Below, piece by piece: positions 172 through 43,545 of a stretch of 64,000 bases of DNA. Each line of letters opens with the position of its first letter. Position 1 is the first letter of the stretch. This DNA is from Minisyncoccia bacterium (GTDB lineage Bacteria > Patescibacteriota > Minisyncoccia > Phycocordibacterales > Phycocordibacteraceae): contig JBBQUV010000005.1 of assembly GCA_038212075.1 (NCBI GenBank), forward strand, positions 9,984-73,983, given 5' to 3'. The translations under genes were made by a program, and so were the position numbers. Below the pieces are notes generated by a model, which searched no databases, was not told where the DNA came from, and worked only from the letters and a program-made list of their open reading frames with translations.

Positions 172-1365
172 TTGTTGAAAAATCGTCTCGTGAGGCGTAC
201 AGTTATTTTTGTAAATATGAATTATTCGCGTGTCATAGATGAAATCTTTCGCCAATTCGACGGGCCCAGATTTTCAATTAAATTATGGGATGGCTCAGAG
301 CGTTATTACGGGTCAGGTGAATCAATAGCGTTTACTCTTGTTATTGACGACGCAATAACCGCCCAACGCTTGCTGGCCCAGGGAGCACTCGGCTTTGGAG
401 AGGCTTATATGGAAGGGAGTCTGCGGATTGAAGGAGATCTTGAGGCATATCTTCGGCTTCGCCATCAATTCAAGCATGTGCGGCGTTCGTTGCGACTCAT
501 GTTCGCCACTTTTCTCGCTAGCAGAAACATACCTCGGGATAGGAAGGATCAAATCGCTTATCACTACGATCTTGGCAATGATTTTTTTCAAATGATTCTA
601 GATCAAAAAACGATGTCTTATTCTGCTGGACGTTATGAGACTGGTTCAGAAGATTTAGCGACAGCCCAGCAAAAAAAGCTTGAATTGATATGTCGCTGGC
701 TCAATCTTCCATCTGGCGCATCAGTTCTCGATCTTGGGTCTGGGTGGGGTGGATTTGCTCAGTATGCTGCAAGAAATATGCACTGGAATATTACTGGATA
801 CACGTTAAGTAACGCTCAACTGGAATATTGTCGACAGCTCATAGGAACAAACCAATTGAACTCGCTGGTGTCATTTGAATATCGTGACATGCTAGAAGAT
901 CTTCCAGCCAGCCAATTCGATGGGATTGCTATGATCGAATCTATAGAACACGTCGGTCAAAAAAGACTCCCTCTGTTTTTTGACCAGCTCAAACAGGTGC
1001 TTAAGCCGGGGGGATCGGCAGTCATTCAGTTTACGGGCCGATATAAACCACACCCTGTAGATCGGTGGACATTAAAGTACGTATTTCCAGGAGGATACTT
1101 GCCGACCAAGGAAGAACTTATTGCTGCTGCTACCCAATCCGGTTTTGTAGTTGAAGAATTTTGTGACGATACTCCTGATTACATCCGTACAATGACTGCA
1201 TGGATAAAAAACTTAGAAAGTCATCGTAACGATCTCGAACGTAAATTTAATAAGTCATTCTATCTACTTTGGGAGCTGTGGATGCACGGAGTGAGGGTTG
1301 CTTTCGAAATAAACTCTATGAGTTTATTTCGTCTTCACTTAAAACGCCCCAACAAGACCTTGTAG
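172..1365 (+). CDS. cyclopropane-fatty-acyl-phospholipid synthase family SAM-dependent methyltransferase (start may be the Met at 217)
   Basis: 397-aa ORF; class I SAM motif VLDLGSGWGGFAQYAARN; N-terminal WDGSERYYG region and overall length typical of CFA/mycolic-acid-synthase-like lipid methyltransferases. Confidence 0.7.
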   Translation: MLKNRLVRRTVIFVNMNYSRVIDEIFRQFDGPRFSIKLWDGSERYYGSGESIAFTLVIDDAITAQRLLAQGALGFGEAYMEGSLRIEGDLEAYLRLRHQFKHVRRSLRLMFATFLASRNIPRDRKDQIAYHYDLGNDFFQMILDQKTMSYSAGRYETGSEDLATAQQKKLELICRWLNLPSGASVLDLGSGWGGFAQYAARNMHWNITGYTLSNAQLEYCRQLIGTNQLNSLVSFEYRDMLEDLPASQFDGIAMIESIEHVGQKRLPLFFDQLKQVLKPGGSAVIQFTGRYKPHPVDRWTLKYVFPGGYLPTKEELIAAATQSGFVVEEFCDDTPDYIRTMTAWIKNLESHRNDLERKFNKSFYLLWELWMHGVRVAFEINSMSLFRLHLKRPNKTL

Positions 1366-1407: not shown

Positions 1408-1956
1408 ATGATCAACCCACAGCCAATACCTGCTTTGAATGAGACCACTGTTGCCCCAGTGCCGGTAGTAAAGAGTATTTGGGGCAAAGGTATACCCCGG
1501 ATCAACCGAATTTTCATGGTCATTTCACTTATACTCGTTTTGGGACTAGATCTCGCTATCCTTTTTGTCTCAGGTTTTTTGTTGCTTCCATTCTGGATCG
1601 TCATGCTTGTGGTGCTTGGAGTATTTGCAGTATTCTTTTATCTTGAAAATTATGTATTTAGCAAAAGATTCGCAAATACTAAGTCTGCATTAGATCCGTG
1701 GATATCTGCAATTATCGTCGCACGCAACGTCATTTTTGTGCTCAACTTCGTTCCTTTAATTCAAATACTCGGGCTCGCATTTCTTGCCGGGTTTTCTGCG
1801 GTCATCCCGAGCGCCTTATTTGGGAGCAACCTTTCTGGGCTTGGCGACTTAGGCGGTCTTGGAATAATGCCGATGATAGTACCTGGGCTATTTTTACTCT
1901 ACATCATTCTCATGGCTGCCCGATTTTCAGCGACAAAGAAAGTACCTGGTCAATAA
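1408..1956 (+). CDS. hypothetical polytopic membrane protein
   Basis: 182-aa ORF with several hydrophobic helices; no motif recognised. Confidence 0.4.
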   Translation: MINPQPIPALNETTVAPVPVVKSIWGKGIPRINRIFMVISLILVLGLDLAILFVSGFLLLPFWIVMLVVLGVFAVFFYLENYVFSKRFANTKSALDPWISAIIVARNVIFVLNFVPLIQILGLAFLAGFSAVIPSALFGSNLSGLGDLGGLGIMPMIVPGLFLLYIILMAARFSATKKVPGQ

Positions 1957-1960
1957 GTAT

Positions 1961-2647
1961 CTACGCCAGTTGAAGAATTTTCTCCATCAAGACAGAAGCC
2001 GCTTTTTCATAATCGTTTCGATCAACGTCAATTACTGCGTCCTCCGTATTTTGAAAGATATCTTTTGCGTAGAGCGGTGCGCCAAAAGTCACAATGACTT
2101 TTCTCTTACCACTGAGGAGATCTCTAAACGTGAGCTGTTCCAAATCCTGTATTAATAGGGGTACTATTGGGAGTTGCTTCTCCCTAGCAAGGAAACTTAC
2201 TCCACCTTTGGCTACAGGAGCCTCTCCTCGCAGGTTTCTTTTTCCTGATGGAAAAATACATACACTCTTTCCCTTATCAATAAACGTAAGGTGATGGTGA
2301 AGGGCACGTTTGTAGTTCTTTAATCCCACATATGCTTGGTATGCGCCCATCATTTTAAAAAAAATTCCACCGTAAATAATCCGTTTCCACCCGTTTTCAG
2401 CATAAAAGTTCTTTTCACGTGAAGTAAAAAACAGCGGAAGGTGGCGAGAAAAGAAAGGTAGGCATGCAACTATTAACAATGGGTCCAGTTCGCTCGTATG
2501 ATTGCTGGCGATAATCATATTACCTTTTATGTTTTTGACGTTCTCTAAACCCCTAATCTCAAGAGAACAAAAAATAGACATCGAGACCCGCAAGGGACCC
2601 CATATGAGGTGTTGGAACACACTGGGCATTATTTCGTATGTTTCCAT
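1961..2647 (-). CDS. lysophospholipid acyltransferase (PlsC/LPLAT family)
   Basis: 228-aa ORF; HX4D acyltransferase motif NHTSELD, downstream FP..G/R blocks typical of 1-acyl-sn-glycerol-3-phosphate acyltransferases. Confidence 0.6.
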   Translation of the reverse strand: METYEIMPSVFQHLIWGPLRVSMSIFCSLEIRGLENVKNIKGNMIIASNHTSELDPLLIVACLPFFSRHLPLFFTSREKNFYAENGWKRIIYGGIFFKMMGAYQAYVGLKNYKRALHHHLTFIDKGKSVCIFPSGKRNLRGEAPVAKGGVSFLAREKQLPIVPLLIQDLEQLTFRDLLSGKRKVIVTFGAPLYAKDIFQNTEDAVIDVDRNDYEKAASVLMEKILQLA

Positions 2648-2739: not shown

Positions 2740-3396
2740 TTGAAAGTAACAACTATGAACTCCTCTGTAGTACTGTTTTTCATAAGTAACGTGCTGGCCA
2801 CGGTCTTGTTGGGTGGCAAATTTGTAAGCAGAAACGACCGCGTTTTTAAGTATTTTGGAATCGGTCTTCTGCTTGATGCTACCGCATTCGCAATGTGGAC
2901 GATCGGGTATATCAATCCAGGACAGCTTCTAACGTTCGTTACCTTTGGCGCGATGGCTTTTCTTGCTTCTCTGGTTGTTTTCCTATTTGCATCTCTTCAG
3001 CAAACTCCTGCAAGTACCCGCTTGTTAGTAACACTCCTTGGGGCCGCCGCCGTCATTGGAATATTTTACGTTGGAAACCAGTCTGCTAATTCGGCATTCA
3101 TATCGCCCGAAGGATTTCTGTTCTTTAATTTGACGCCACTCGTTCAAATGATTTATCTTTTCGGGCTGGCGTTTGCCTCACTTCCATTAATCGACATGAT
3201 CGCTTCAAGATTTAAAGCACCGTTTTCCGCACTTGTGCGATACGGTCTTATTACGGAGGTTGTGGGAGGCATCATGCTTATTACGAATAAGGACGCTCAA
3301 GTCCTGTACATTACCGGCTGGATTATAGGTATTGTGTATTTTGCTCTCTGGGCAACACTGCTTTTTAACCGCAAAGCTTGGTCGAGCGCAAACTGA
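2740..3396 (+). CDS. hypothetical polytopic membrane protein (first gene of co-directional operon 2740-10296)
   Basis: 218-aa ORF, about 6 predicted TM helices; no motif recognised. Confidence 0.45.
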   Translation: MKVTTMNSSVVLFFISNVLATVLLGGKFVSRNDRVFKYFGIGLLLDATAFAMWTIGYINPGQLLTFVTFGAMAFLASLVVFLFASLQQTPASTRLLVTLLGAAAVIGIFYVGNQSANSAFISPEGFLFFNLTPLVQMIYLFGLAFASLPLIDMIASRFKAPFSALVRYGLITEVVGGIMLITNKDAQVLYITGWIIGIVYFALWATLLFNRKAWSSAN

Positions 3397-3468: not shown

Positions 3469-4434
3469 ATGAAAGTATTAATTACAGGAATCACTGGAAA
3501 TTTAGGCCATGAAGTATCGCTTGACTTGCATCGGCGAGGCAGCACTCTAATACCTCTTGTACGCTCGGGAAATAGCAAAATTACATCTCACCCAGTACAT
3601 TTTGAAGAAGTGATCGAGGGTGATTTGGTGGAAGAAGGAGAAATTAAATTTTCCGGTGCGGTCGACTGCATTGTTCACTGCGCTGGGGTTGTTCGTTTTC
3701 GTGAGCCCAAAAATAAGAATGAACAGATGATGTTGCGGGTGATAGAGCTCGCAAAGGAGTTGGCAGTGCCTGTCTACGCCGTAAGCACCGCGTTTGTATA
3801 TAGACCACGAGGCACAACTAATGGATTCAATAATGACTATGAGCAAGACAAATTTCGAGCTGAACAAGCCCTTATTAGTTCTGGCGTATCGTATAGCATA
3901 TTTAGACCTTCGGTTTTAACCGGTAACAGTCACACCGGAGAAATACAGAACTTCAGCGGCTACTATCTAATGGTACGAGCGTTTTTATCCGCGGCACGTA
4001 ATGCGATTGAGCATGGGCGCCTGCTGAGATTTCCAAAAATGACTGGAGAATCAAACATGGTTCCTGTCGATCAGGCGGCAGAGTATATTGGCAAAACCAT
4101 ACAAGACGGCCCCCTCAAAGAGATATTCTATATTACTAATCCTGCACCACCTCGATCTGAATGGGTACTCGACGAGACGTTAAACTTTTTTGGCATTCGC
4201 AACGACGTTACCGTATTAGATGTGTCGTTTCAGGAATTTGGCGAACTCAATCTTACGGAAGAAGAGGCTGCGCTTTATCAATTTGCATCACATTTTAGCC
4301 CCTATTGGTCTACGGGATATGAATTTCCCGCTTCTCTTTGCAGCCATAATCTGATAAGTCATAGCTACTTAATGAAGGCACTAAACGTCTTTCGTAACAC
4401 AGAACAACTCGCTTATGGACAAAAAACTTATTAA
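3469..4434 (+). CDS. extended SDR family NAD(P)-dependent reductase/epimerase (thioester- or fatty-acyl-reductase-like)
   Basis: N-terminal Rossmann motif ITGITGNLG; catalytic YxxxK as YEQDK followed by FRAEQAL (resembles YxxSKxxAE of thioester-reductase domains); RPSVLTG block. Confidence 0.6.
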   Translation: MKVLITGITGNLGHEVSLDLHRRGSTLIPLVRSGNSKITSHPVHFEEVIEGDLVEEGEIKFSGAVDCIVHCAGVVRFREPKNKNEQMMLRVIELAKELAVPVYAVSTAFVYRPRGTTNGFNNDYEQDKFRAEQALISSGVSYSIFRPSVLTGNSHTGEIQNFSGYYLMVRAFLSAARNAIEHGRLLRFPKMTGESNMVPVDQAAEYIGKTIQDGPLKEIFYITNPAPPRSEWVLDETLNFFGIRNDVTVLDVSFQEFGELNLTEEEAALYQFASHFSPYWSTGYEFPASLCSHNLISHSYLMKALNVFRNTEQLAYGQKTY

Positions 4435-5497
4435 TTATAGCCAGTGTTGGGAAGATCCTCAGATCTTGGAAGAAGCGCTTTCGATTCACACAGGTGACTG
4501 CGTTCTATCCATAACATCGGGAGGAGATAACACGTTGGCTCTCTTGCTTGCCGGTCCGCAAAAAGTGGTCTCAATTGATCTGAATCCAGCCCAAAATTAT
4601 TTGCTTGAACTGAAGATGGCTGCGGCACAAAGCCTTACATACACAGAGTATCTGGAATTTTTAGGTGTTGTTGAATCAAACACCAGGGCTTCATACTTTG
4701 AAAAAGTACGTCCGCACCTGTCTTCTGCCACGAGTGTATGGTGGTCAAATCATACCCACTTAGTCGGCAAGGGTGTTATTCATTGTGGTCGCTTTGAGCG
4801 ATTCACCACGTGGTTTGCACAAAATATTTTACCACTCATACATTCCAGAAGCACGATTCTAAGTCTTCTATCTTTTAGCGATGTCGAGGATCAGCGGATT
4901 TTCTACCGAGATCAATGGAACTCTTGGCGATGGAGATTCCTTTTTGGTCTGGCATCCAACCGATTCATGTTGAGAAGGTTTGCTCGTCAACGAGGGATGT
5001 TTTCGTATTCAAAAGGAAAGACAGTCGCCGACTTGTATCGTAAAAGATTAGAGCGACACCTTACCGCTGTCTCTATTGAAAGCAACTTCTTCTTACATTA
5101 CAGCTTGACGGGAAAATATGGTCACGACCTACCTCCGTATCTGCAAGAAAAAGGATATTCGCAGTTGAAGCGAGTGTCAGCGTCAGCGCTCTCGATTGAG
5201 ACGAATGATCTCTTAACTTATTTAAGATCTAAACCCGCCAGCACCTTTTCCAAGTTTAATCTATCGGACATATTTGAAGCTCTTTCCCCAGTAGAAAATG
5301 ATATCTTATGGGAAGAAATTCTTCGCACAGCAAAGCATGGTGCTGTTGTGGCGTATTGGAACAATCTTGTTCAACGAACCTACCCACCTCATTTATCCGC
5401 TCATTTTCAGGTAGATGAGAAACGTGTGAGCCAGTTACGGTCAAAAGATAAGGTTTTTTTCTATGAAAGTTTTCATGTCCATACCATTCTAAAATGA
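4415..5497 (+). CDS. DUF3419/BtaA-like putative SAM-dependent transferase
   Basis: 360-aa ORF; N-terminal YSQCWEDPQILEEAL block, which I recall as the signature of DUF3419 (betaine-lipid synthase BtaA family); Rossmann-like VLSITSGGDNTLALL..VVSIDLNP; overlaps the upstream gene by 20 nt. Confidence 0.4.
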   Translation: MDKKLINYSQCWEDPQILEEALSIHTGDCVLSITSGGDNTLALLLAGPQKVVSIDLNPAQNYLLELKMAAAQSLTYTEYLEFLGVVESNTRASYFEKVRPHLSSATSVWWSNHTHLVGKGVIHCGRFERFTTWFAQNILPLIHSRSTILSLLSFSDVEDQRIFYRDQWNSWRWRFLFGLASNRFMLRRFARQRGMFSYSKGKTVADLYRKRLERHLTAVSIESNFFLHYSLTGKYGHDLPPYLQEKGYSQLKRVSASALSIETNDLLTYLRSKPASTFSKFNLSDIFEALSPVENDILWEEILRTAKHGAVVAYWNNLVQRTYPPHLSAHFQVDEKRVSQLRSKDKVFFYESFHVHTILK

Positions 5498-6390
5498 TCA
5501 CAAGAGCATATAAAACAGTTAAGAAATTCTACTCTTATCAACAAAAGCGATTCCCTTTGATCGTGCTGGCCCTGAGTCTCTCTCCAGCCATTTTAAGTTC
5601 AGGAGCCATTATATCTGTTCATCCGAGCATATTTCATATGGGTTCCGCACTTGTAGCTTCAATTGCATACCTGTTGCATATTAGAATTATAGATGAGCAT
5701 CGTGATTTTGATCACGATAACGTACACCATGCCACCCGCCCTGTTCAGGCGGGGACTATCTCCAAAGAGGAACTGCATCATATAGATATCTCGGCAGTTG
5801 CTCTTTTGGTTCTTATCGCAGCAAGTGCAGGATCACAAGCTTTTGCAACTGCGGTAGTCATGCTGTCGTACTCATATCTCGCTGGAAAGGAATTCTTCGT
5901 TGGTGAAAAGATCCGCAGATATTTTTTTAGTTATAACGCTGCAAATCTTATTCAAATGTTCTTGATGCAGATTTTTGTATATACGATTTTTGCAAATCCA
6001 TTCCCATTTAACACACTTATTCTCGCTCACTTTATTTTTACGAGTGTCGGTACGGTCATTTTTGAGTTTGTACGTAAGCTAAAAATACCAGGGGACGATG
6101 GTTCGGGTAGAGATACATACACTTGGTATCTTGGATTTTATAAAGCGATCGCTATCTATCAAGTGCTCCTCGTATCAGATACGTTACTTTTCATATGGAT
6201 TGCAACACTTCTTTTGCCACATACTGCTGTTCTACTCTCTTTTGCGTTAGGATTAGCGATGTTGGCTTCTTTGTCCACTCTGATCCATACAAGGAAGAAG
6301 ACACATCAGACAGATCAACTTATGCAGCTGTCTTTTTTGCTCTTATACGGAATCTTCAATCTCGCAATTTATTTCCTTAAAATCATATAA
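5494..6390 (+). CDS. UbiA-family integral membrane prenyltransferase
   Basis: 298-aa polytopic protein; Asp-rich motif DEHRDFDHD followed by NVHHATRPVQAGTIS (compare UbiA NDxxDxxxD...RTANRPLPSG); ATGA overlap with the upstream gene. Confidence 0.55.
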   Translation: MITRAYKTVKKFYSYQQKRFPLIVLALSLSPAILSSGAIISVHPSIFHMGSALVASIAYLLHIRIIDEHRDFDHDNVHHATRPVQAGTISKEELHHIDISAVALLVLIAASAGSQAFATAVVMLSYSYLAGKEFFVGEKIRRYFFSYNAANLIQMFLMQIFVYTIFANPFPFNTLILAHFIFTSVGTVIFEFVRKLKIPGDDGSGRDTYTWYLGFYKAIAIYQVLLVSDTLLFIWIATLLLPHTAVLLSFALGLAMLASLSTLIHTRKKTHQTDQLMQLSFLLLYGIFNLAIYFLKII

Positions 6391-8667
6391 ATGCTTAAAA
6401 GTGGCAAGGCACATTCGCTAAGACGACTTAAAGACGGTGGCTGTCTCGTGCCTCCATTTTTTGTGTGTGATGCAACGTGGTCAGAGGGAGAGATATTGAA
6501 AAAGATAGATACCAGCCTACCAGGTGTTGAGTATTTCGCTGTTCGCTCTTCAGCAGCGAATGAGGATTCAAGTGATCGATCTTTTGCGGGGCATTTTTAC
6601 ACTGCAATAGGAGTAGGTCGTCGAGATATCATTGCAGAAGTAGGTAAGGTGCAAAAGTCCTACGAAGAAATGTCAGGTTCGGTAATCGTGCAGGAGTTCA
6701 TATCCAGCGATACGGCTGGCGTCATGTTTACTGAAGTGGGCAAAGACACTGTAGTCATAAATTCAACAACCGGTCTTTGTCGACCAGTCGTTGAGGGTGG
6801 TGCGTGCGATGAATATTTGTTGAGCAAAGATGGTACTTTGGTACGAAAAACGATTCCTACAGAAAAAGGAGTACTTCTGTTTAAAGATCAGAAGATTATT
6901 TCCGAAAAGAGTAGTGAAGAATCTCTCAATGAGTCGAAGATAAGCCAATTGATAAAGGTAGGTGCTAAGATTCAGGATCTTTTTGACTCGCCTCAAGATA
7001 TTGAGTGGTGTTTCAAAGATGGCGAATTATATATTCTTCAGTCTCGCCCCATTACGAGGGATTTTAAAGTTGGAAAGGAAGAATATTTTGATAGTGCCAA
7101 TATAGCAGAAAGTTATTCAGGTATTGTTCTTCCTCTTACTTGTTCATTCGCCAAGACGGTATACGAACAGGTCTACAAGGACCTCCTTCACATGTCTGGG
7201 GTCTCAAGAAAAAAGATAGAGCGTCATTCCGAAGTCTTTGAAGGCTTACTCGGTTTTTTCTATGGAAGGATGTACTACAACATGAACAATTGGTATCGCA
7301 TGGCGGAGTTCGTACCCGGGTATAGTAGGAACAAACAGAACTTCGAGTTAATGATTACGAGCAACATCAAACAAGATGTTGCAACGGTAATAAGACCCTC
7401 TTTTGGTCTACGAGCTCTGTACCCCGTAATTGTTGGCCTAAAGGTAGCTGCGTTCGGAGTTACTTCATCGAGTTTTAAATCGGGAGTAGAGTGCCACTTA
7501 CGTCTCCTTAGAAATCAGGACTTCAAACGTCTAAACTATAAAGACTCAATCACTTTATTTGAAAATATAAATAAGAATCTATTGCGCCGATGGTACATCA
7601 CGCTTGAGAACGATTTTTTTGTGATGACGTATTTAGGAATTCTGAGAAAGCTACTTAACGAAGATCTATTGCAAAAAGCCATTACGTTTCCAAGTAAAGC
7701 AACTGAACAGGTTGATGCGCTGTCGGCTCTTAGTAAGCAAATGAGTGACGTTAGGGAAGTATGGCAGGCTGTCGAATCTGACGATGTTAAAAGATTTAAG
7801 GTGGAACTGGAACGTAATGCAAAACTATCTGTCGCTCTTGATACCTATCTACACACATTCGGTGGAAGATTTGCAAGCGAGTTAAAGCTTGAATCAATCG
7901 GCGTGGATGAAGATCCAAAAAAACTGTTTGTAGTTTTAAAGGCCTATCGGAATTACAAGCCTAAATCAGGCATCGTTCAACCAGATTTATCCTTACCTTT
8001 TTTCAAGAAGCTTATCGTAAAGATAATAGTGGGTAAATTCAGGAAATACGCCTCTCGCCGTGAGGACTTTCGTTTGTTGCGTTCTAACACGTTTGCTATG
8101 GCCAGACATCTCTTCAGACATATGGGTACCTTGCTGGTAAGGGGGGGTAGCATACAAAACCAGGGCGATGTGTTTTATTTAACAATGCAAGAAATACTCG
8201 ATCCACGAGCCCATACGCATAGCCATCTCACAGAGGTCGTGGCAAAGAGAAAAGAAGAATACGTCTCCTATAAAGATACCGTTCCACCATCTCATTTTTC
8301 GACGATTAATGGTCAGCTACCCCCAGTCGTAGCTTCAGCCATGTCCAAGCAACATACAATTCATGCTCGCCCAGCATCTCCCGGAACGGTGAGAGGTCGA
8401 GTAAAGGTATTTAGAGAGTTTTCAATGCCAAATCAAGTAGACTTTGATATCTTAGTGACATCACACACTGATCCGGGGTGGACGTCACTTATCGCGTTAT
8501 CTAAAGGGCTTATTATTGAGCATGGCGGGGTGTTGTCGCATGCTTCAATTGTGGCCCGAGAGTTGGGCATACCAGCCGTAATTGGTGCCACAAATATTCT
8601 CAATACACTAGTAGACTACCAAACAGTAGAAATGGACGGATCGACTGGAGTAATTAATTTATCGTAG
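6391..8667 (+). CDS. PEP-utilising-enzyme family protein (PEP synthase / rifampin-phosphotransferase-like ATP-dependent phosphotransferase)
   Basis: 758 aa; PPDK_N/ATP-grasp block FAVRSSAANEDSSDRSFAGHFYT; C-terminal swivelling phospho-His domain GGVLSHASIVARELGIPAVIG; no PEP/pyruvate-binding TIM-barrel segment evident. Confidence 0.7.
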   Translation: MLKSGKAHSLRRLKDGGCLVPPFFVCDATWSEGEILKKIDTSLPGVEYFAVRSSAANEDSSDRSFAGHFYTAIGVGRRDIIAEVGKVQKSYEEMSGSVIVQEFISSDTAGVMFTEVGKDTVVINSTTGLCRPVVEGGACDEYLLSKDGTLVRKTIPTEKGVLLFKDQKIISEKSSEESLNESKISQLIKVGAKIQDLFDSPQDIEWCFKDGELYILQSRPITRDFKVGKEEYFDSANIAESYSGIVLPLTCSFAKTVYEQVYKDLLHMSGVSRKKIERHSEVFEGLLGFFYGRMYYNMNNWYRMAEFVPGYSRNKQNFELMITSNIKQDVATVIRPSFGLRALYPVIVGLKVAAFGVTSSSFKSGVECHLRLLRNQDFKRLNYKDSITLFENINKNLLRRWYITLENDFFVMTYLGILRKLLNEDLLQKAITFPSKATEQVDALSALSKQMSDVREVWQAVESDDVKRFKVELERNAKLSVALDTYLHTFGGRFASELKLESIGVDEDPKKLFVVLKAYRNYKPKSGIVQPDLSLPFFKKLIVKIIVGKFRKYASRREDFRLLRSNTFAMARHLFRHMGTLLVRGGSIQNQGDVFYLTMQEILDPRAHTHSHLTEVVAKRKEEYVSYKDTVPPSHFSTINGQLPPVVASAMSKQHTIHARPASPGTVRGRVKVFREFSMPNQVDFDILVTSHTDPGWTSLIALSKGLIIEHGGVLSHASIVARELGIPAVIGATNILNTLVDYQTVEMDGSTGVINLS

Positions 8668-8670
8668 GCC

Positions 8671-9675
8671 ATGAATATCAAACCATATCAAAATAACTCT
8701 TTCGCCAACGAGCTCAGCGATCTCCTGCGGAAGAAATATGGAAACAACAAAAACTTCGACTATTTTTTAAGTGACTTCAGGAAGGCGTTTAGCTTTTGTA
8801 TTGATAATGAGAATGTAAATTTTCAACCAATTGCTGGGTTTGAAGCAGAACAATTGCGTGCACATATCGCTCTCATTGTTGATAAAAGATTACCAACAGG
8901 TGAGGCATTTTTTGGCTTCCTAGAAGCTCCTGAAGACGCCTCGATATTCAGTCTAATGTGGAACAGTCTAGTGCAAGAAGCTCGTGACAAAGGAATTTCG
9001 ATTCTCAAGGGTCCTGTAAACGGGAGCATCTGGCATCAATATAGGTGTGTCAAAGAAACAGACGGCTCTAACTTTTTTAAAGCAGAATTATTTTGCGAGC
9101 CTTACTACTATGATTTTCTTGTCTCAAACAAACCAACCACCGAAGTGCTCTACTACTCAGCTTCTCGGGAACATTTCGATATCGTGTTGCGAATGATCAG
9201 TGAAGCTTCGTACAAGAAACTTGGTGCTTCCGGCTTTTCTATCAAGGCGACGAAACAGGTCACCCCTGAAGAGATGCAAACGGTAGCGAACATCTCCAAA
9301 ACAGTCTTTCATAGTAGTTGGGGATATACCGAACTGAATGAGCGAGAGTTTATGCAGCTCTATTCGCCGGACAAATTAAGTTCACATCTTAATACGCTGT
9401 ACTTGCTCTATAAGGGGAGAGAAATCATAGGTTTTTGTAGTACTTCCAAGGAAGATGATACAACTCTCATTCTAAAAACAATCTGCATTTTGTCACCATA
9501 TCAAGGTTTAGGTTTAGGAAATGCTCTGGCATATAAAATACATCTCGACGCCAAGGAAGACGGTTTTGAAAAGATGGTCTACGCTCTGATACGAGAAGGT
9601 AATAACATAAAGAATTTCCCCAAAGAGGAGGCTGTGATTTTTCGACGCTATGCAGCCTTCGAATTTCACATATAA
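8671..9675 (+). CDS. hypothetical protein with C-terminal GNAT-like acyltransferase fold (possibly tandem GNAT)
   Basis: 334 aa; GNAT motif-A-like YQGLGLGNALAYKI near the C-terminus; no other motif recognised. Confidence 0.4.
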   Translation: MNIKPYQNNSFANELSDLLRKKYGNNKNFDYFLSDFRKAFSFCIDNENVNFQPIAGFEAEQLRAHIALIVDKRLPTGEAFFGFLEAPEDASIFSLMWNSLVQEARDKGISILKGPVNGSIWHQYRCVKETDGSNFFKAELFCEPYYYDFLVSNKPTTEVLYYSASREHFDIVLRMISEASYKKLGASGFSIKATKQVTPEEMQTVANISKTVFHSSWGYTELNEREFMQLYSPDKLSSHLNTLYLLYKGREIIGFCSTSKEDDTTLILKTICILSPYQGLGLGNALAYKIHLDAKEDGFEKMVYALIREGNNIKNFPKEEAVIFRRYAAFEFHI

Positions 9676-9678
9676 AAT

Positions 9679-10296
9679 ATGTATATCTCTCTTTTTCTCC
9701 TCGTGTCTGTGGCCTTTATTGCGAGTGTAGAACTTGTAAAAAGGAGGGCTCAGATTTCAAGTGATTTTACCAGAAGAGTGACCCATATAGGTGCAGCGTT
9801 TATTGCGGCGGCGGCCCCACTGTTTATAAACCAGCAAGCAATTATTATCGCGTGTCTATTTTTTGCTGGCACATTACTGCTCGCACGTCGGAGCGATATG
9901 TTTTCGTCGATACATGACGTTAAGCGCACCACCTTTGGAGACGTTTATTTACCCTTGGGGGAGGCTATTTCTGCTGCTATCTTTCTTCCTCATGCAGTCT
10001 TAGCTTTCCAATTCGGAGTGCTTGTGATGGGTATATCTGACGCCTTGGCAGGTCTCGTTGGCGAAAAATTCGGCAGACATAAGGTTACTTTTTTCGATAA
10101 TACAAAGAGCCTTGAGGGAGCCACGGTTTTTTTTGTCAGTACCCTAATCTTGGCGCTTCTGTTCGTTCCGGTTTTTAGTTACCAAATATTGTTTATCGCC
10201 GTCATACTGACGCTGGTGGAGTTCTTACTGATATATGGCTTAGATAACTTAGTATTGCCGATTATCGGATCGATTCTCATTCAAACGGTACTGTAG
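9679..10296 (+). CDS. CTP-transferase-family (CdsA superfamily) membrane protein, polyprenol (dolichol/phytol) kinase-like; a CDP-alcohol-synthase (CarS-like) role is not excluded
   Basis: 205-aa polytopic protein; block ISDALAGLVGEKFGRHKV...KSLEGATVFFVS resembles the dolichol-kinase/phytol-kinase C-terminal signature (GDxxAxxxGxxxGxHK...K[ST]xEGS); lacks the PGHGGxxDRxD of true CdsA. Confidence 0.5.
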   Translation: MYISLFLLVSVAFIASVELVKRRAQISSDFTRRVTHIGAAFIAAAAPLFINQQAIIIACLFFAGTLLLARRSDMFSSIHDVKRTTFGDVYLPLGEAISAAIFLPHAVLAFQFGVLVMGISDALAGLVGEKFGRHKVTFFDNTKSLEGATVFFVSTLILALLFVPVFSYQILFIAVILTLVEFLLIYGLDNLVLPIIGSILIQTVL

Positions 10297-11834: not shown

Positions 11835-13799
11835 GTGGAAGCCCCTATTCCAGAAGCGACACCTCCCATTCCGCCAGTGCCTGGCGCCCACCCGGAAATA
11901 AGCATAACTCTATTTGCTGGCATCATTATTCTGGAAATCTTGCTCGTTTGCGTATTTGCCTCGTGGAAATTTGGATTTCTGACGGAAAAAAATACTGTAG
12001 TAAATAATGGTGAAGAAACAAGCACCGTAACAGAAGACACTGGAACATCGCAAGGGAACTACAATTCTTCTGATCGATTTTTGACTCCACAACAGTTTCA
12101 AGTTGCGCGATTAAGTCTTGGCAGTACCACCCCCAAAGTACTCAAAGACAAGTATGATCTGTTCGTGCTCAGCCAACCGTACGAAGATATTGATACTAAC
12201 GGCGTTACCACCTATTACGAAGATGGGACTTTGTCGTCGGGAACATATGCGGGATACCATGTGATTATTGCTCGTATTACACCCTATGACAACGATGGAC
12301 CTGGCAGTAGCGACGAGTACTACACCTTCATCACCAAGGATTACCGCTCATTTATTGTATTTACCCCAGAGATAGGAAAACTACCGAATCCGACATGGTT
12401 TAATACTGCGCGCGTTGTCCAAGCGGATCATTTCGCAACTCATTTTCCAAACACTATTCCGTTTGGGAATTTTGTTCTTACAAAAAGTGAATGGTTTAAC
12501 TCAGATGTTTTGTATGATCACAACAATACTTCTCCTGTAGGAACGGTTGAACTCACGAGTCCCGATCCACACCTGAAAATTTTCTCTGAGCCAGAAGAAC
12601 CTCTTACTAACCTTGAAGATACTCTTACAAAGACGCTTGCCGATGCTGCAGCCGCGTACATTTATGGGCGGACCACCGTTATGGTGCGCGATGAAGCAGG
12701 GATTGGATTTGTTTACTCGCTTTCCTTTGCGCACTTTGCAAATCCAAATGATCCAGCAGGTCGTATTCCAAACACCGAGTACCGCTACGGATATTTGGGA
12801 GTAGCTCAAAACCAGCCGACGCTCTATTCTTCCTATGCAAAATTAATTCCTTACGGTTGCGAAGGCGCAAACTCCTCTGAGAGTTACGTTCTTAAGAATA
12901 TCTCTGATGCTGATGTCCGCGACACGGGTATTAAGTGGCAGGGTGTTGAGTTGTATGCCTTTGCGAACGCACGTAATCCACTCACCGAGGCCCATTATCG
13001 TCAAAAGGTTGCAGCATACGCCGCGATATATAAGAACGGAAGCGAGTCCGCCACTCTGGATACACTTGCGTTTACTGACTATATAGCAAAAACCCCAACG
13101 CTTCTTTTTAAAGATCCGTGGGGCAGATGGGTGGGTGTTGGAGAAGATGAATACAAGGTAACTGGAGGTTGCGGGAAACCGGTGATTTACCTGTATCCTC
13201 CTCAATCGACTGAGGTATCAGTGCAATTTATGCAATCACCGAGGTTCACTACTGATATACCAATCTATGAAAATGGTTGGAAGGTACTCGCGGAAACGAC
13301 GGGAGCACTTCACGACTTGCAGCCAGCCCTGACTCCTTGCGAGACATTGGCTACCAACGTATTTGGCTCCGAATATGCGGGAGCAGCCTGCAAAACAAAC
13401 ACCTACCCATATCTCTTCTGGGCAGGACAAGCAAATGGAAACTACCCAACGCCGACTGGAGGATGGATTGTGGAGAAGGCAAACATAGAATCGTTTCTAG
13501 GATCAAAATTGACTGAGCTTGGCTTAAATGACACAGAACGCAATGACATGCTCTCATTCTGGGTGCCGCAACTCATGAAAAAGAATAGTCCGTACTATCG
13601 GTTGGCTTTCTTTCAAACGAGCGAAATGAACCATTTCATACCTATGATTATTTCACCGCGTCCCGATAGCATGCTCCGACTCTTCCTTGATTGGACACCG
13701 CTTTCTACTCTTCCGGATCATCTCCCACAGCCACAACAGTTACATCAATTCCACCGGTCTGGATTTGCGGTAGTCGAGTGGGGAGGTCTTGATCGTTAA
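11835..13799 (+). CDS. hypothetical large exported / membrane-anchored protein
   Basis: 654 aa; Pro-rich N-terminus then one TM/signal-anchor (ISITLFAGIIILEILLVCVFASW); large hydrophilic Y/W/N/T-rich ectodomain; no motif recognised. Confidence 0.55.
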   Translation: MEAPIPEATPPIPPVPGAHPEISITLFAGIIILEILLVCVFASWKFGFLTEKNTVVNNGEETSTVTEDTGTSQGNYNSSDRFLTPQQFQVARLSLGSTTPKVLKDKYDLFVLSQPYEDIDTNGVTTYYEDGTLSSGTYAGYHVIIARITPYDNDGPGSSDEYYTFITKDYRSFIVFTPEIGKLPNPTWFNTARVVQADHFATHFPNTIPFGNFVLTKSEWFNSDVLYDHNNTSPVGTVELTSPDPHLKIFSEPEEPLTNLEDTLTKTLADAAAAYIYGRTTVMVRDEAGIGFVYSLSFAHFANPNDPAGRIPNTEYRYGYLGVAQNQPTLYSSYAKLIPYGCEGANSSESYVLKNISDADVRDTGIKWQGVELYAFANARNPLTEAHYRQKVAAYAAIYKNGSESATLDTLAFTDYIAKTPTLLFKDPWGRWVGVGEDEYKVTGGCGKPVIYLYPPQSTEVSVQFMQSPRFTTDIPIYENGWKVLAETTGALHDLQPALTPCETLATNVFGSEYAGAACKTNTYPYLFWAGQANGNYPTPTGGWIVEKANIESFLGSKLTELGLNDTERNDMLSFWVPQLMKKNSPYYRLAFFQTSEMNHFIPMIISPRPDSMLRLFLDWTPLSTLPDHLPQPQQLHQFHRSGFAVVEWGGLDR

Positions 13800-16869: not shown

Positions 16870-18090
16870 ATGGATATACGAGCAGATGCTCACGCGCTGT
16901 ATAAAAAAAATCGCCGCATGCATGGGGAGTTTGAGTACACGGTCCCAGACGGATTCGTCTACCCTTATCAGTGGCTGTGGGACTCTTGTTTTCACGCAAT
17001 CGTGCTTTCCATGCTTGAACCAGATGCCGCAAAACGTGAGCTTGAGTCGCTCGTTTCAAAACAATTTGCAGATGGGATGGTTCCCAATATTATTTTTTGG
17101 GATATAAAAATTACTCGACCCTATCACTGGGATTGGGTAACAGGCAAAACTACTTCTATTACCCAGCCACCAATGCTTGCGTATGCGGCATGGGAAGTGT
17201 ATCGCCGCACCGGCGACAAGGCGTTTCTTGAAAAACTCTATCCGCACATTCTTGCGTTTTATAAATATTTGATTGGCAATCGCGACCCGCAAGACCACCA
17301 TCTTGCCGGCATCATAAATCCTGATGAGTCCGGTGAAGACAATTCACCACGTTTTGATATTCCTATGCATGTCGATAGCGATATTTCGTTTCTTGGGCAT
17401 ATGCAACGACGACGCAAATTGATTCATGAAAATCGCGTATGCAATTTTGACGCAGAGATTTGCATGAGCAAAAACTTTTGGGTAAAAGACGTGCCCTTTA
17501 ACGCCATACTCATTCGCAATCTTGAGTCACTCGGACACATCGCTTCGTTTCTTGGTCATGAGCAAGGTGAACAGTTTGCAAAACTACATTCAGGACTGGT
17601 TGCAAATGCAATGCGTGAACGGTTGTTTGCTGACGGCGTGTTCTGGTCTGCGATGGATCACGACTATAAACCACTTCGAGTTGCAACATGGGCGCACTTT
17701 GCTCCGTTATTTGCGGGGCTCTATACGAAAAACGAGGCAGACGCACTGATGAGTGAGCACTTTGAAAATCACGAAACTTTCCGCTCGCGATTCGGCATTC
17801 GTACGGTTTCAAAGCAGGAGCCCGCGTACCGTTCGGACGCGTTTTGGCGCGGCCCTATCTGGTTTGCGCCACACTGGTTTATCTACCAAGGACTGATGAA
17901 TTATGGTTATAAAGCAGAAGCAAAGTTTATTCGTGATGCAACCGTAGGACTGATTGAACAAAATGGGTTTCGCGAGTATTTCAACCCAGAAACTGGTGTG
18001 GGGTACGGTGCACGCAACTTCACCTGGGGTGCGCTCGTGCTTGATATGGAAGAGGAGGTGCCGTGGTCGCAACCAGAAAACGGCGCGTGA
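16870..18090 (+). CDS. six-hairpin glycoside hydrolase-like protein (GH63 / glycogen-debranching / mannosylglycerate-hydrolase-like)
   Basis: 406 aa; YPYQWLWDSCFHAI block typical of (alpha/alpha)6-barrel glucosidases. Confidence 0.5.
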   Translation: MDIRADAHALYKKNRRMHGEFEYTVPDGFVYPYQWLWDSCFHAIVLSMLEPDAAKRELESLVSKQFADGMVPNIIFWDIKITRPYHWDWVTGKTTSITQPPMLAYAAWEVYRRTGDKAFLEKLYPHILAFYKYLIGNRDPQDHHLAGIINPDESGEDNSPRFDIPMHVDSDISFLGHMQRRRKLIHENRVCNFDAEICMSKNFWVKDVPFNAILIRNLESLGHIASFLGHEQGEQFAKLHSGLVANAMRERLFADGVFWSAMDHDYKPLRVATWAHFAPLFAGLYTKNEADALMSEHFENHETFRSRFGIRTVSKQEPAYRSDAFWRGPIWFAPHWFIYQGLMNYGYKAEAKFIRDATVGLIEQNGFREYFNPETGVGYGARNFTWGALVLDMEEEVPWSQPENGA

Positions 18091-18103
18091 TACACTTCAC
18101 GTA

Positions 18104-19207
18104 ATGGATTTTTTAAAAAAGCTTTATTCAAAAAAGGGTTTGCTCCACCTCTATCGACCGAATCGGCCAATTTCGGTAGTACTTGTCGCGTGCGCTCTTT
18201 TTATATATATCGTCGGGTTCAGCAGTCTTTTCACCATTCAATATAAGCACGTAGATGCTGAGGCGGTATTAGCACAAGTACAAAAGATAGCACCCCTTGC
18301 TACACCGAAACTGGATACGAAAGCGTACGATGCAAAGATGGCGTTTCTTGCCCATACAGCAACCACCACAAGTACGTCAACGCCAAAACTATGGCCGGTA
18401 AAAGCGGCGTATCCGAATGCGGGCGCGTTATTACCTTTTAATCGCATTGTTGCGTACTACGGAAATTTTTATTCAAAAGGTATGGGTGTGCTTGGCGAAT
18501 ACCCAACCGATCAAATGATTGCAAAACTTCAGGCTGAAGTGAAGGTGTGGCAGGCCGCGGATCCAAAAACACCGGTGATTCCGGCTATTCACTATATTGT
18601 AGAAACGGCTCAGGGCAGTCCCGGTAAGGAAGGAAAATATCTGCTTCGTATGCCAGAAAGCCAAATAGACATTGCGCTTGCCGATGCCGAAAAAGTGCAC
18701 GGTATTGTCTTTCTCGATTTCCAAGTAGCACTCAGTAGTCTTCCTGCAGAGCTACCAAACTATGTGAAATATCTAGCAATGCCGAACGTGCATCTTGGTG
18801 TTGATCCGGAATTTTCCATGCATAACGGTGCGCGACCAGGAACGGTGATTGGCATCATGGATGCAACGGACATAAATTACGCTGCGAATTTTCTTGCGGC
18901 GCTCGTAAAAGCAAACAATCTTCCACCAAAAATGTTGGTGATACACCGTTTTACGGAAGGCATGGTAACTAACTACAAAAACATAAAGCCACTTCCCGAG
19001 GTACAGATAGTGATGGATATGGACGGATGGGGCTTCGGTGCAAAGAAAATTAATACCTACAATCAAGTGATTTATCCGGAGCCAGTGCAATTTACTGGAT
19101 TCAAACTCTTTTATAAAAACGACGTGAAGCCGCCGTCCACCCGCATGCTCACCCCTGCTGAAATTTTGAAACTGATACCATCACCGAGTTACATTCAGTA
19201 TCAGTAG
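18104..19207 (+). CDS. hypothetical membrane-anchored protein (start moved to ATG 18104, just after the upstream stop)
   Basis: ORF track starts at 17954 inside the preceding gene; MDFLKK...ISVVLVACALFIYIV gives a signal-anchor start; a TIM-barrel glycosidase-like fold is possible but unverified. Confidence 0.45.
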   Translation: MDFLKKLYSKKGLLHLYRPNRPISVVLVACALFIYIVGFSSLFTIQYKHVDAEAVLAQVQKIAPLATPKLDTKAYDAKMAFLAHTATTTSTSTPKLWPVKAAYPNAGALLPFNRIVAYYGNFYSKGMGVLGEYPTDQMIAKLQAEVKVWQAADPKTPVIPAIHYIVETAQGSPGKEGKYLLRMPESQIDIALADAEKVHGIVFLDFQVALSSLPAELPNYVKYLAMPNVHLGVDPEFSMHNGARPGTVIGIMDATDINYAANFLAALVKANNLPPKMLVIHRFTEGMVTNYKNIKPLPEVQIVMDMDGWGFGAKKINTYNQVIYPEPVQFTGFKLFYKNDVKPPSTRMLTPAEILKLIPSPSYIQYQ

Positions 19208-36439: not shown

Positions 36440-36445
36440 TTGCGT

Positions 36446-43437: not shown

Positions 43438-43545
43438 CGCAATGTTTCCTTGTGCGATGTCCACAGGACATCCGTGGATTACGGGGGTACACTAAATCTC
43501 CAATCGTTTTTTGCGCGTTTTCATTACTCATTTTTTGCCTCTCGT

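Follow-up and report, generated by a model that had tools for sequence, protein, structure and literature searches.

A conserved RPH-like dikinase in a lipid-type gene cassette of Patescibacteria and other phyla and its predicted acceptor

Results

The dikinase gene and its domains

The present study deals with a gene at positions 6391..8667 (+ strand) of a stretch of 64,000 nucleotides from a Minisyncoccia bacterium (GenBank assembly GCA_038212075.1, contig JBBQUV010000005.1, positions 9,984 to 73,983 of the forward strand); the whole stretch is called the window throughout. The gene is an open reading frame (ORF) running from ATG to TAA and encodes a protein of 758 aa, named RPHL here for RPH-like dikinase, RPH being rifampin phosphotransferase. 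Pfam matches were obtained to PPDK_N (residues 47-226, E 3.7e-31) and, at the C-terminus, to PEP-utilizers (residues 686-753, E 7.1e-22). An earlier description of the window made from the letters alone, referred to below as the sequence-only reading, had named a PPDK_N block and a C-terminal mobile His domain. Both were found, and the motifs quoted for them, FAVRSSAANEDSSDRSFAGHFYT and GGVLSHASIVARELGIPAVIG, correspond to residues 49-71 and 712-732. The protein is divided into a shortened ATP-grasp domain (residues 1-228; 6391..7074), a central, predicted acceptor-binding domain (residues 229-652; 7075..8346) and a C-terminal phospho-His swivel domain (residues 653-758; 8347..8664), all on the + strand.

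The region between the two Pfam domains had earlier been put at ~350 aa and described as being of unknown fold. It is actually ~420 aa long, and in the AlphaFold2 model of RPHL (mean pLDDT 87.3, pTM 0.72) residues 229-652 are all-helical with high confidence and form no alternating beta/alpha barrel. Its limits were drawn from the secondary structure of the model and from conservation, and it carries the family motifs DSANIAESY, NMNNWY, ENDFFVMTY and FGGRFASELKLES. A Foldseek search with the model returned Listeria RPH (RPH-Lm) as all six top PDB matches (5hv1, 5fbs, 5hv3, 5hv2, 5fbt and 5fbu), with E values of 1e-32 to 3e-23 over 726-900 aligned columns that cover all three domains; the TM-scores of ~0.5 are as expected for a multi-domain swivel enzyme. 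The next matches, namely HpeI, the ATP-binding domain of RPH alone, phosphoenolpyruvate (PEP) synthase and D-Ala-D-Ala ligases, were at the ATP-grasp domain only. At the sequence level the best solved relative is again RPH-Lm (E 2e-49 for the protein by phmmer, 7e-76 for the profile), at an identity of 20-21%. Homologues of RPHL also carry the Pfam domain PF27448, 'Rph_4th'. The RPH-type architecture proposed in the sequence-only reading is thus borne out by sequence, fold, domain order and catalytic residues, and the comparison of models gives a full-length match for RPH and an ATP-grasp match for PEP synthase.

The PPDK_N alignment of RPHL begins only at profile position 101. A truncated ORF was considered as the cause of the short match and was ruled out. 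The protein starts with the (S/G)GKA lysine motif (K6) of the ATP-grasp domain, and a MxxGGKA start is common to 38/38 orthologues in an alignment spanning 50-74% identity. Moreover, two internal insertions found in the ATP-grasp domain of homologues of 860-900 aa are missing from the 758-aa form, the first of ~45-55 aa after the second strand of the domain and the second a helix of ~18 aa with the pattern 'VWAS.FS.R...YR'. On these alignments the ORF is complete and its ATP-grasp domain is a minimised version.

Catalytic residues and class of mechanism

In RPH the first half-reaction depends on Lys22, Arg117 and Thr136 and the second on Arg666, Glu667 and Lys670, while His825 is the phosphate carrier (PMC4844700). 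The residues were mapped to RPHL by phmmer, pairwise and profile alignments. K22, R117 and T136 of RPH-Lm correspond to K6, R52 and T71 of the ATP-grasp domain, position 71 being Ser in most orthologues. R666 and E667 correspond to R557 and E558 in the central domain (codons at 8059-8064, +), K670 to R561, where Lys is replaced by Arg, and H825 to H717 of the swivel domain (codon at 8539-8541, +). With the exception of position 71, no variation was seen at these residues, either in the 38 orthologues or in homologues of other phyla that are only 28-30% identical; the catalytic His, the loss of which would have told against the sequence-only reading, is retained throughout. Six motifs, D[SN][AS]NI[AV]ESY, GR.Y.N...WY, W...L.ND, [FY]G.R...ELKLE, RE..R..R and the LSH of the swivel domain, are present in RPHL and are likewise invariant across homologues of the type found in the Candidate Phyla Radiation (CPR, or Patescibacteria) and those of the Planctomycetes-Verrucomicrobia-Chlamydiae (PVC) type.

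Because the catalytic residues are conserved, both half-reactions are probably intact. It is strongly indicated that RPHL is a three-domain small-molecule, water dikinase of the RPH/PigC type, working by an RPH-type ping-pong mechanism through a swivelling phospho-His. ATP would be bound by the ATP-grasp domain through K6, R52 and T71, and His717 would accept the beta-phosphate with release of AMP and Pi. The swivel domain would then move across to the helical centre, and R557, E558 and R561 there would place the phospho-His for transfer to an oxygen of the acceptor. The reaction predicted from these residues is very likely ATP + acceptor-OH + H2O -> AMP + Pi + acceptor-O-phosphate.

Separation from PEP synthase, RPH and PigC

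Curated NCBIfam equivalog cut-offs were used as the test of membership in the known families. RPHL has ATP-grasp and phospho-His swivel domains homologous to those of PEP synthase and PPDK and shares their ping-pong route through phospho-His, and database names such as 'pyruvate, water dikinase' and 'PEP/pyruvate-binding domain-containing protein' would make it an ordinary PEP synthase (pyruvate, water dikinase). The domain content refutes this and leaves it with practically no chance of being correct: there is no match to the PEP-utilizers_C barrel (PF02896) in the Pfam scan, the His domain is C-terminal rather than central, the acceptor domain is helical instead of a TIM barrel, and the scores are 149.8 bits against a cut-off of 739.75 for TIGR01418 and 157.2 bits against 598 for NF005057. 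The earlier statement that RPHL lacks the PEP/pyruvate barrel and is not a true PEP synthase therefore holds. The nearest curated subfamily is NF004881 (PRK06241.2-2, named 'phosphoenolpyruvate synthase'), which aligns to residues 45-757 with 444.8 bits; the cut-off being 883, RPHL is not a member by this score.

With RPH-Lm (PDB 5FBS/5FBT/5FBU/5HV1; PMC4844700) RPHL has in common the order of ATP-grasp, helical acceptor domain and C-terminal swivel His, the full-length fold and the catalytic residues of both half-reactions. It differs in an ATP-grasp domain that is ~100 aa shorter and in being a member of a conserved biosynthetic cassette (described below), RPH being a stand-alone resistance locus. 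The RPH profile alignments cover only the ATP-grasp domain and the last third of RPHL. RPH residues ~333-539 found no match in the dikinase family, neither with a CPR-only profile nor with a mixed one. The rifampin pocket of RPH is made by Q336/Q337, Y351, P356, V368, L387, L478, F479 and M673, and most of these contacts (Q336-L387, L478/F479) fall in the first half of its central domain. The stretch of RPHL that RPH leaves unmatched is the most conserved part of its own family, with the motifs DSANIAESY..G...PLT, GR.Y.N...WY and W...L.ND..VM, and the only rifampin contact that could be mapped by alignment, Met673, is an invariant Arg564 in the dikinase family. The unmatched drug-binding half, its high conservation and the change of Met673 to Arg564 together argue for one conserved acceptor other than rifampin. 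The invariant R564 may mean that this acceptor is polar or anionic near the site of transfer.

An antibiotic-like substrate had been offered as one option in the sequence-only reading. In this case RPHL would be a phosphotransferase for rifamycin or another antibiotic or xenobiotic that merely adjoins lipid genes. RPH is indeed the closest solved structure, some orthologues (P0093, P0278, P0319, P0320 and P0359) bear the JGI label 'rifampicin phosphotransferase', and a survey of the CPR resistome counted rph-like genes, reporting them in Microgenomates (PMC8651080). However, the two RPH models score 194.9 bits (NF041857, cut-off 999) and 132.7 bits (NF000283, cut-off 1700) at the low identity given above, the half that contacts rifampin is unrelated in sequence and yet strongly conserved, Met673 has become an invariant Arg, and the gene is translationally coupled in a biosynthetic cassette that is kept across ~10 phyla. 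A true RPH is ruled out by the missed cut-offs, the unmatched half and the synteny, and the wider antibiotic explanation is now disfavoured as extremely unlikely. From synteny, the labels 'PEP synthase' and 'rifampicin phosphotransferase' on this dikinase family are likely misannotations, and the rph-like hits in CPR resistomes, if they belong to it, are probably not resistance genes.

The prodiginine ligases PigC, RedH and HapC share the domain architecture of RPHL, and in them the scaffold is used in biosynthesis, where phosphorylation activates a hydrophobic intermediate. It could be supposed that RPHL is an activating ligase of this kind, placing a transient phosphate on a carbonyl, enol or amide oxygen as a leaving group and so driving an ATP-dependent condensation or cyclisation in the pathway, with no stable phosphate ester left behind. 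The shared architecture, with scores of ~165 bits, speaks for it, and so do the fusions of RPHL homologues to GNAT and adenylating enzymes described below, as acyl and carboxyl chemistry would suit a condensation step. Against it, the scores of 167.7 bits for PigC and 164.2 bits for RedH lie far below the cut-offs of 1300 and 1350, there are no pyrrole or prodiginine genes nearby, and the R-E dyad, which in RPH serves direct transfer to a hydroxyl, is conserved. The phosphate in PigC is a transient leaving group. A ligase of this kind is considered unlikely.

The two-component aryl dikinases (phenylphosphate synthase; HpeHI, PDB 9GOJ, PMC12167813) resemble RPHL in that its ATP-grasp domain matches HpeI and that split forms exist in the dikinase family; they differ in having phenol acceptors and a role in aromatic catabolism, and their acceptor subunits are not known relatives of the centre of RPHL.

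Split forms were met at several places. In a Staskawiczbacteria locus (L032, 4985-6571) the dikinase gene begins at the central domain (MNKKEKKEEYFFDSANIAESY), and a separate ATP-grasp-like piece lies downstream of the cassette (L032:8453-9094), with 31% identity to residues 34-222 of RPHL. At L027:9001-10581 the ORF begins at MKQYFDSANIAESY directly after the UbiA gene, and an ATP-grasp domain was not found in that locus. Cluster representatives of ~535-560 aa span residues 228-757 only, and P0367, P0377, P0389, P0394, P0462 and P0498 are split or ATP-grasp-less forms of this sort. By analogy, such dikinases recall two-component enzymes like HpeHI.

The gene neighbourhood and its conservation

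RPHL lies within a run of lipid-type genes. Directly upstream on the + strand are a NAD_binding_4 or thioester-reductase-like short-chain dehydrogenase/reductase (SDR; 3469..4434; Pfam, NCBIfam TIGR01746), a DUF3419 protein (4415..5497, Pfam E 2.4e-74) and a UbiA-superfamily prenyltransferase of 298 aa with ~8 transmembrane segments (5494..6390, Pfam UbiA 30.9 bits, cut-off 34.2). Downstream, also on the + strand, follow a 334-aa acyltransferase with a C-terminal GNAT domain (8671..9675, Pfam Acetyltransf_1) and a 205-aa polytopic membrane protein of the CdsA/dolichol-kinase/phytol-kinase (CTP_transf_1) superfamily (9679..10296), which was assigned from matches of its orthologues and from its fold. 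From the SDR onward the genes overlap by 20 and 4 nt and are then separated by 0, 3 and 3 nt. The TAA stop of the UbiA gene directly abuts the ATG of RPHL in the same frame, and scans for promoters and terminators inside the operon gave nothing above chance; by this arrangement RPHL is translationally coupled to its neighbours. Further upstream are a cyclopropane-fatty-acyl-phospholipid-synthase-like methyltransferase (CMAS; 172..1365, +, Pfam E 1e-61), a 182-aa membrane protein without a family match (1408..1956, +), a PlsC-type acyltransferase on the opposite strand (1961..2647, -, Pfam Acyltransferase E 6e-17) and a 218-aa membrane protein, also without a family match (2740..3396, +). The lipid-operon setting noticed in the sequence-only reading is well founded in the CMAS, PlsC-type, NAD_binding_4, DUF3419 and UbiA genes.

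A search of 5.8 billion proteins gave hundreds of proteins of ~758 aa at 50-74% identity to RPHL, nearly all of which, where a name is given, belong to CPR (Levy-, Taylor-, Davies- and Saccharibacteria, Paceibacteria and others). The nearest relatives, at 65-74% identity, come from CPR metagenome-assembled genomes (MAGs). A scan of GTDB representative genomes yielded 42 loci, from Patescibacteria, Gammaproteobacteria, Bdellovibrionales, Elusimicrobia (Elulimicrobium), and Bacteroidales, Tenuifilaceae, Rikenellaceae and Crocinitomicaceae MAGs, together with one Woesearchaeota MAG and one Rhodobacteraceae MAG. Synteny was counted by tblastn of ten window proteins against the retrieved loci, within 9 kb and only where the flank was sufficient. 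UbiA was present in 40/43 loci, DUF3419 in 37/39, and GNAT and the 205-aa protein in 40/41 each. The remaining proteins were less constant: the 218-aa membrane protein was found in 25/36 loci, PlsC in 17/33, the SDR in 18/37, the 182-aa membrane protein in 15/31 and CMAS in 11/26. The counts therefore define a five-gene core, DUF3419-UbiA-dikinase-GNAT-205aa, and five accessory genes, the SDR being an accessory gene of the CPR-type cluster.

A query with the 28%-identical Rhodobacteraceae homologue opened a second and larger group of dikinases of 860-900 aa, which occurs in Planctomycetota, Verrucomicrobiota, Acidobacteriota (Blastocatellales), Ignavibacteriales, Burkholderiales and Krumholzibacteria. 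All five core proteins were found around the 28-30%-identical dikinases of Planctomycetota, Blastocatellales and Rhodobacteraceae MAGs and of three further contigs, in most cases with an HMG-CoA reductase and an AMP-binding enzyme. The order there is HMG-CoA reductase - UbiA - dikinase - DUF3419 - a 440-451-aa protein - GNAT - AMP-binding enzyme, or permutations of it, and, in loci whose DNA could be compared, the 205-aa protein of the window has its homologue in the N-terminal half of the 440-451-aa protein. HMG-CoA reductase lies directly upstream of UbiA in 5/7 distant contexts (L046, L049, L050, L044 and the P0312 contig); other mevalonate-pathway genes are not beside it in these five. One variant locus adds a diacylglycerol-kinase-type lipid kinase, a phosphatidylserine-decarboxylase homologue and a MacB-type ABC exporter, and the Rhodobacteraceae locus carries an MMPL transporter. 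Judged by these homologies, the five core proteins stay associated in about ten phyla and at identities as low as 28%.

Two fusions were also seen. In P0089 (1002 aa; L001:10001-13009), which occurs in two assemblies with the cassette around it, the dikinase is joined to GNAT, and in P0506 (1092 aa) it is joined to an AMP-binding (acyl-adenylating) enzyme. Fusions and tight linkage to partners could also be expected of a regulatory protein kinase, in which the swivel His would phosphorylate a partner protein of the cassette such as UbiA or GNAT; PPDK-derived kinases with a regulatory function have been described, and such a role has been proposed for VadK. However, RPHL retains a complete RPH-like acceptor domain, the R-E dyad and many invariant motifs of the pocket type, and VadK is a derivative of PPDK and not of the RPH architecture. 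A protein kinase is very unlikely.

Several features of individual loci were noted besides. A radical SAM protein of 366-383 aa with CxxxCxxC (Pfam E 5e-18 to 1.5e-23) lies in or beside the cassette of some CPR and Bacteroidales genomes. Its gene stands between UbiA and the dikinase in L012 (7845-8996), L013 and L032, and upstream of DUF3419 in L023 (5514-6656) and L043 (5008-6108); lipid methylation or C-C coupling are possibilities for its role. In L001 a 203-aa ORF occupies the interval between UbiA and the dikinase (9406-10017), gaps of similar size occur in L019, L033, L039 and L045, and the ORF has only weak ferritin-like di-iron matches (EncFtn-like E 0.076, COQ7 E 0.16); a role in hydroxylating or desaturating lipids is possible. 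The 775-kb contig of L003 has an arrangement of the surA-pdxA-rsmA type, typical of Gammaproteobacteria. The accessory part of the cluster there (L003:5236-6311 and 7100-8048) is broken by an insertion sequence element (HTH_Tnp_1 and rve), the SDR being split into two ORFs and PlsC being absent, and all five core genes are intact. A 34%-identical dikinase homologue lies at L042:2227-4272 on a 4.3-kb contig binned as a Woesearchaeota (DPANN archaeon) MAG.

Partner proteins

Digeranylgeranylglyceryl phosphate (DGGGP) synthase forms an ether bond to the hydroxyl of a phosphorylated lipid acceptor. The profile of UbiA orthologues has its best match in the DGGGP synthase of M. jannaschii (6m31; E 1e-8, nearly full length), as compared to 0.07 for 4-hydroxybenzoate octaprenyltransferase and 0.11 for chlorophyll synthase. 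The first Asp-rich motif is present, and R64, D67, D71, D75 and R82-P83 are invariant. Orthologues of the 205-aa protein match PF01148 CTP_transf_1 (E 1.5e-5) and are named 'phytol kinase' or 'dolichol kinase' by JGI; one distant homologue is a 'diacylglycerol/polyprenol kinase family protein' in UniRef. The only meaningful PDB fold matches of its AlphaFold model (pLDDT 92.3) are to the CDP-diacylglycerol synthase TmCdsA (probability 0.95-0.99). The domain match, the names and the fold therefore make it a predicted CTP-dependent membrane enzyme acting on a lipid alcohol or a lipid phosphate. The two proteins bring to mind the archaeal sequence of DGGGP synthase followed by CDP-archaeol synthase, UbiA being closest to DGGGP synthase among solved structures and the 205-aa protein falling in the CdsA-type superfamily. 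The similarities are weak, however, the cassette has no geranylgeranylglyceryl phosphate synthase or glycerol-1-phosphate dehydrogenase, and the dikinase has no archaeal counterpart.

DUF3419 is a family which we take to be that of BtaA, the S-adenosylmethionine (SAM):diacylglycerol 3-amino-3-carboxypropyl transferase. In the BtaA reaction the acceptor is diacylglycerol, whose free hydroxyl receives the 3-amino-3-carboxypropyl group from SAM. The literature found on DUF3419 concerns betaine lipids only, and its profile gave nothing useful against PDB. The phosphatidylserine-decarboxylase homologue beside DUF3419 in the variant locus fits a lipid head group of the amino-acid type. In the 334-aa GNAT protein the C-terminal GNAT domain is generic, and ahead of it lies a conserved N-terminal domain with the motif GPVNGSIWHQYR; a PDB profile search gave generic GNAT matches to the C-terminal domain only, and no relatives of the N-terminal domain were detectable. 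The HMG-CoA reductase of PVC-type cassettes and the NAD_binding_4 reductase of CPR-type ones both take an acyl thioester to an alcohol, and non-orthologous replacement of one by the other is possible.

Discussion

The present study indicates a fixed place in a lipid-type operon for a type of dikinase whose members had until now been known only to inactivate antibiotics, assemble pigments or take part in aromatic catabolism. It is probable that RPHL carries out the ATP-dependent phosphorylation of a lipid or isoprenoid alcohol in a pathway that has not been described. The acceptor would be an amphipathic intermediate of the cassette pathway, most likely a primary alcohol on a lipid or isoprenoid, and the phosphate ester would then serve as substrate for the membrane enzymes encoded on either side. 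A lipid or polyprenol substrate is what we infer, and the idea of such an acceptor is strengthened because the synteny with UbiA and with the phytol/dolichol-kinase-like protein is highly conserved.

The acceptor could be specified in two ways. Tentatively, it may be an alcohol made by the thioester reductase of the cluster, which is the NAD_binding_4 protein here and HMG-CoA reductase in other phyla. From DUF3419 would come a 3-amino-3-carboxypropyl group, with its amine open to GNAT and its carboxylate to the adenylating enzyme and the reductase; the dikinase would phosphorylate the resulting alcohol, which would be part of a homoserine-derived, N-acylated head group or backbone. This route would explain both fusions, to GNAT and to the adenylating enzyme. 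It agrees with the preference of the enzyme family for hydroxyl acceptors and would yield a phosphorylated acceptor as used by DGGGPS-like enzymes.

The other way, which is rather doubtful and is drawn by analogy, is that the dikinase and the phytol-kinase-like protein together turn a scavenged prenol into an activated prenyl donor for UbiA. In the phytol salvage of plants, VTE5 and VTE6 feed VTE2. The functional likeness is that of a series in which a membrane kinase of the phytol-kinase family and another kinase act ahead of a UbiA-family prenyltransferase. It should be noted here that VTE6 is unrelated to the dikinase and that the cassette has additional enzymes of the BtaA and GNAT families, so that the plant pathway serves as a model and not as a case of homology. 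Such a prenol route would explain the near-universal juxtaposition of UbiA and dikinase.

A number of points weigh against phosphorylation of a lipid or isoprenoid alcohol. The prenol route requires that the dikinase act on a phosphate-monoester acceptor, or that the donor be cytidylylated or pyrophosphorylated; no member of the RPH/PigC family is known to phosphorylate a phosphate monoester, which tells against the second step of this route, and for the two kinds of donor we know of no precedent in the family either. Neither of the two routes uses all seven recurrent enzymes without leftovers. The likeness of UbiA to DGGGP synthase is modest (the E of 1e-8 above) and the window protein falls below the Pfam cut-off, while the link of DUF3419 to BtaA is our presumption. 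Isoprenoid-synthesis genes were not found in the 64-kb window, and all relatives of the dikinase are MAG or metagenome sequences, with no organism of known lipid phenotype for comparison.

The class of enzyme is already known. The novelty lies in a separate and strongly conserved subfamily: its ATP-grasp domain is minimised, its acceptor pocket is unrelated, and it has a constant position in a lipid cassette that is apparently undescribed; full-text literature searches found no description of the five genes together. There is a substantial chance that the product of the pathway is a new class of lipid. A fuller proposal, which is possible but is not put forward with confidence, is that the five-gene core is a widely transferred pathway to a phosphorylated, isoprenoid-bearing, homoserine-derived (N-acylated) membrane lipid. 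The RPH scaffold would then be employed in primary lipid biosynthesis for the first time, the phosphate would be supplied without glycerol phosphate as the starting point, and CPR, and possibly DPANN archaea, would have a means of their own to build or re-tailor membrane lipids from scavenged parts.

CPR/Patescibacteria are generally described as being without lipid biosynthesis (PMC9948471). The tightly coupled lipid-type operon is conserved in many CPR classes and also occurs in other phyla, in bacteria with predatory, symbiotic and free-living habits, and it bears on the question of how CPR obtain and shape their membranes. If the cassette does make a new lipid class, it would provide a directly testable handle on CPR membrane biology and would extend the chemistry of the RPH/PigC family.

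Other features of the window

Downstream of the gene for the 205-aa protein lie non-lipid genes, whose products are an HI0933-like flavoprotein and proteins of the glyoxalase and metallo-beta-lactamase folds. Elsewhere the window holds housekeeping genes, among them those for MurJ, YceG, LepA, BipA, TsaD, ABC transporters and a ribonucleotide reductase of class II. Two large ORFs are without any Pfam match, at 11835-13799 (654 aa, with one N-terminal hydrophobic segment) and at 36440-38359 (639 aa). The gene of an MGH1-like glycoside hydrolase (16870-18090) overlaps by 137 nt an ORF of 417 aa at 17954-19207, which has a TTG start and no family match, and the start of which is probably mis-set. 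The ribonucleotide reductase at 43450-45930 (826 aa) has an ATP-cone and a B12-dependent class II insertion domain, and its barrel domain gives a weak match (E 3e-6), which marks it as a divergent member of its family.

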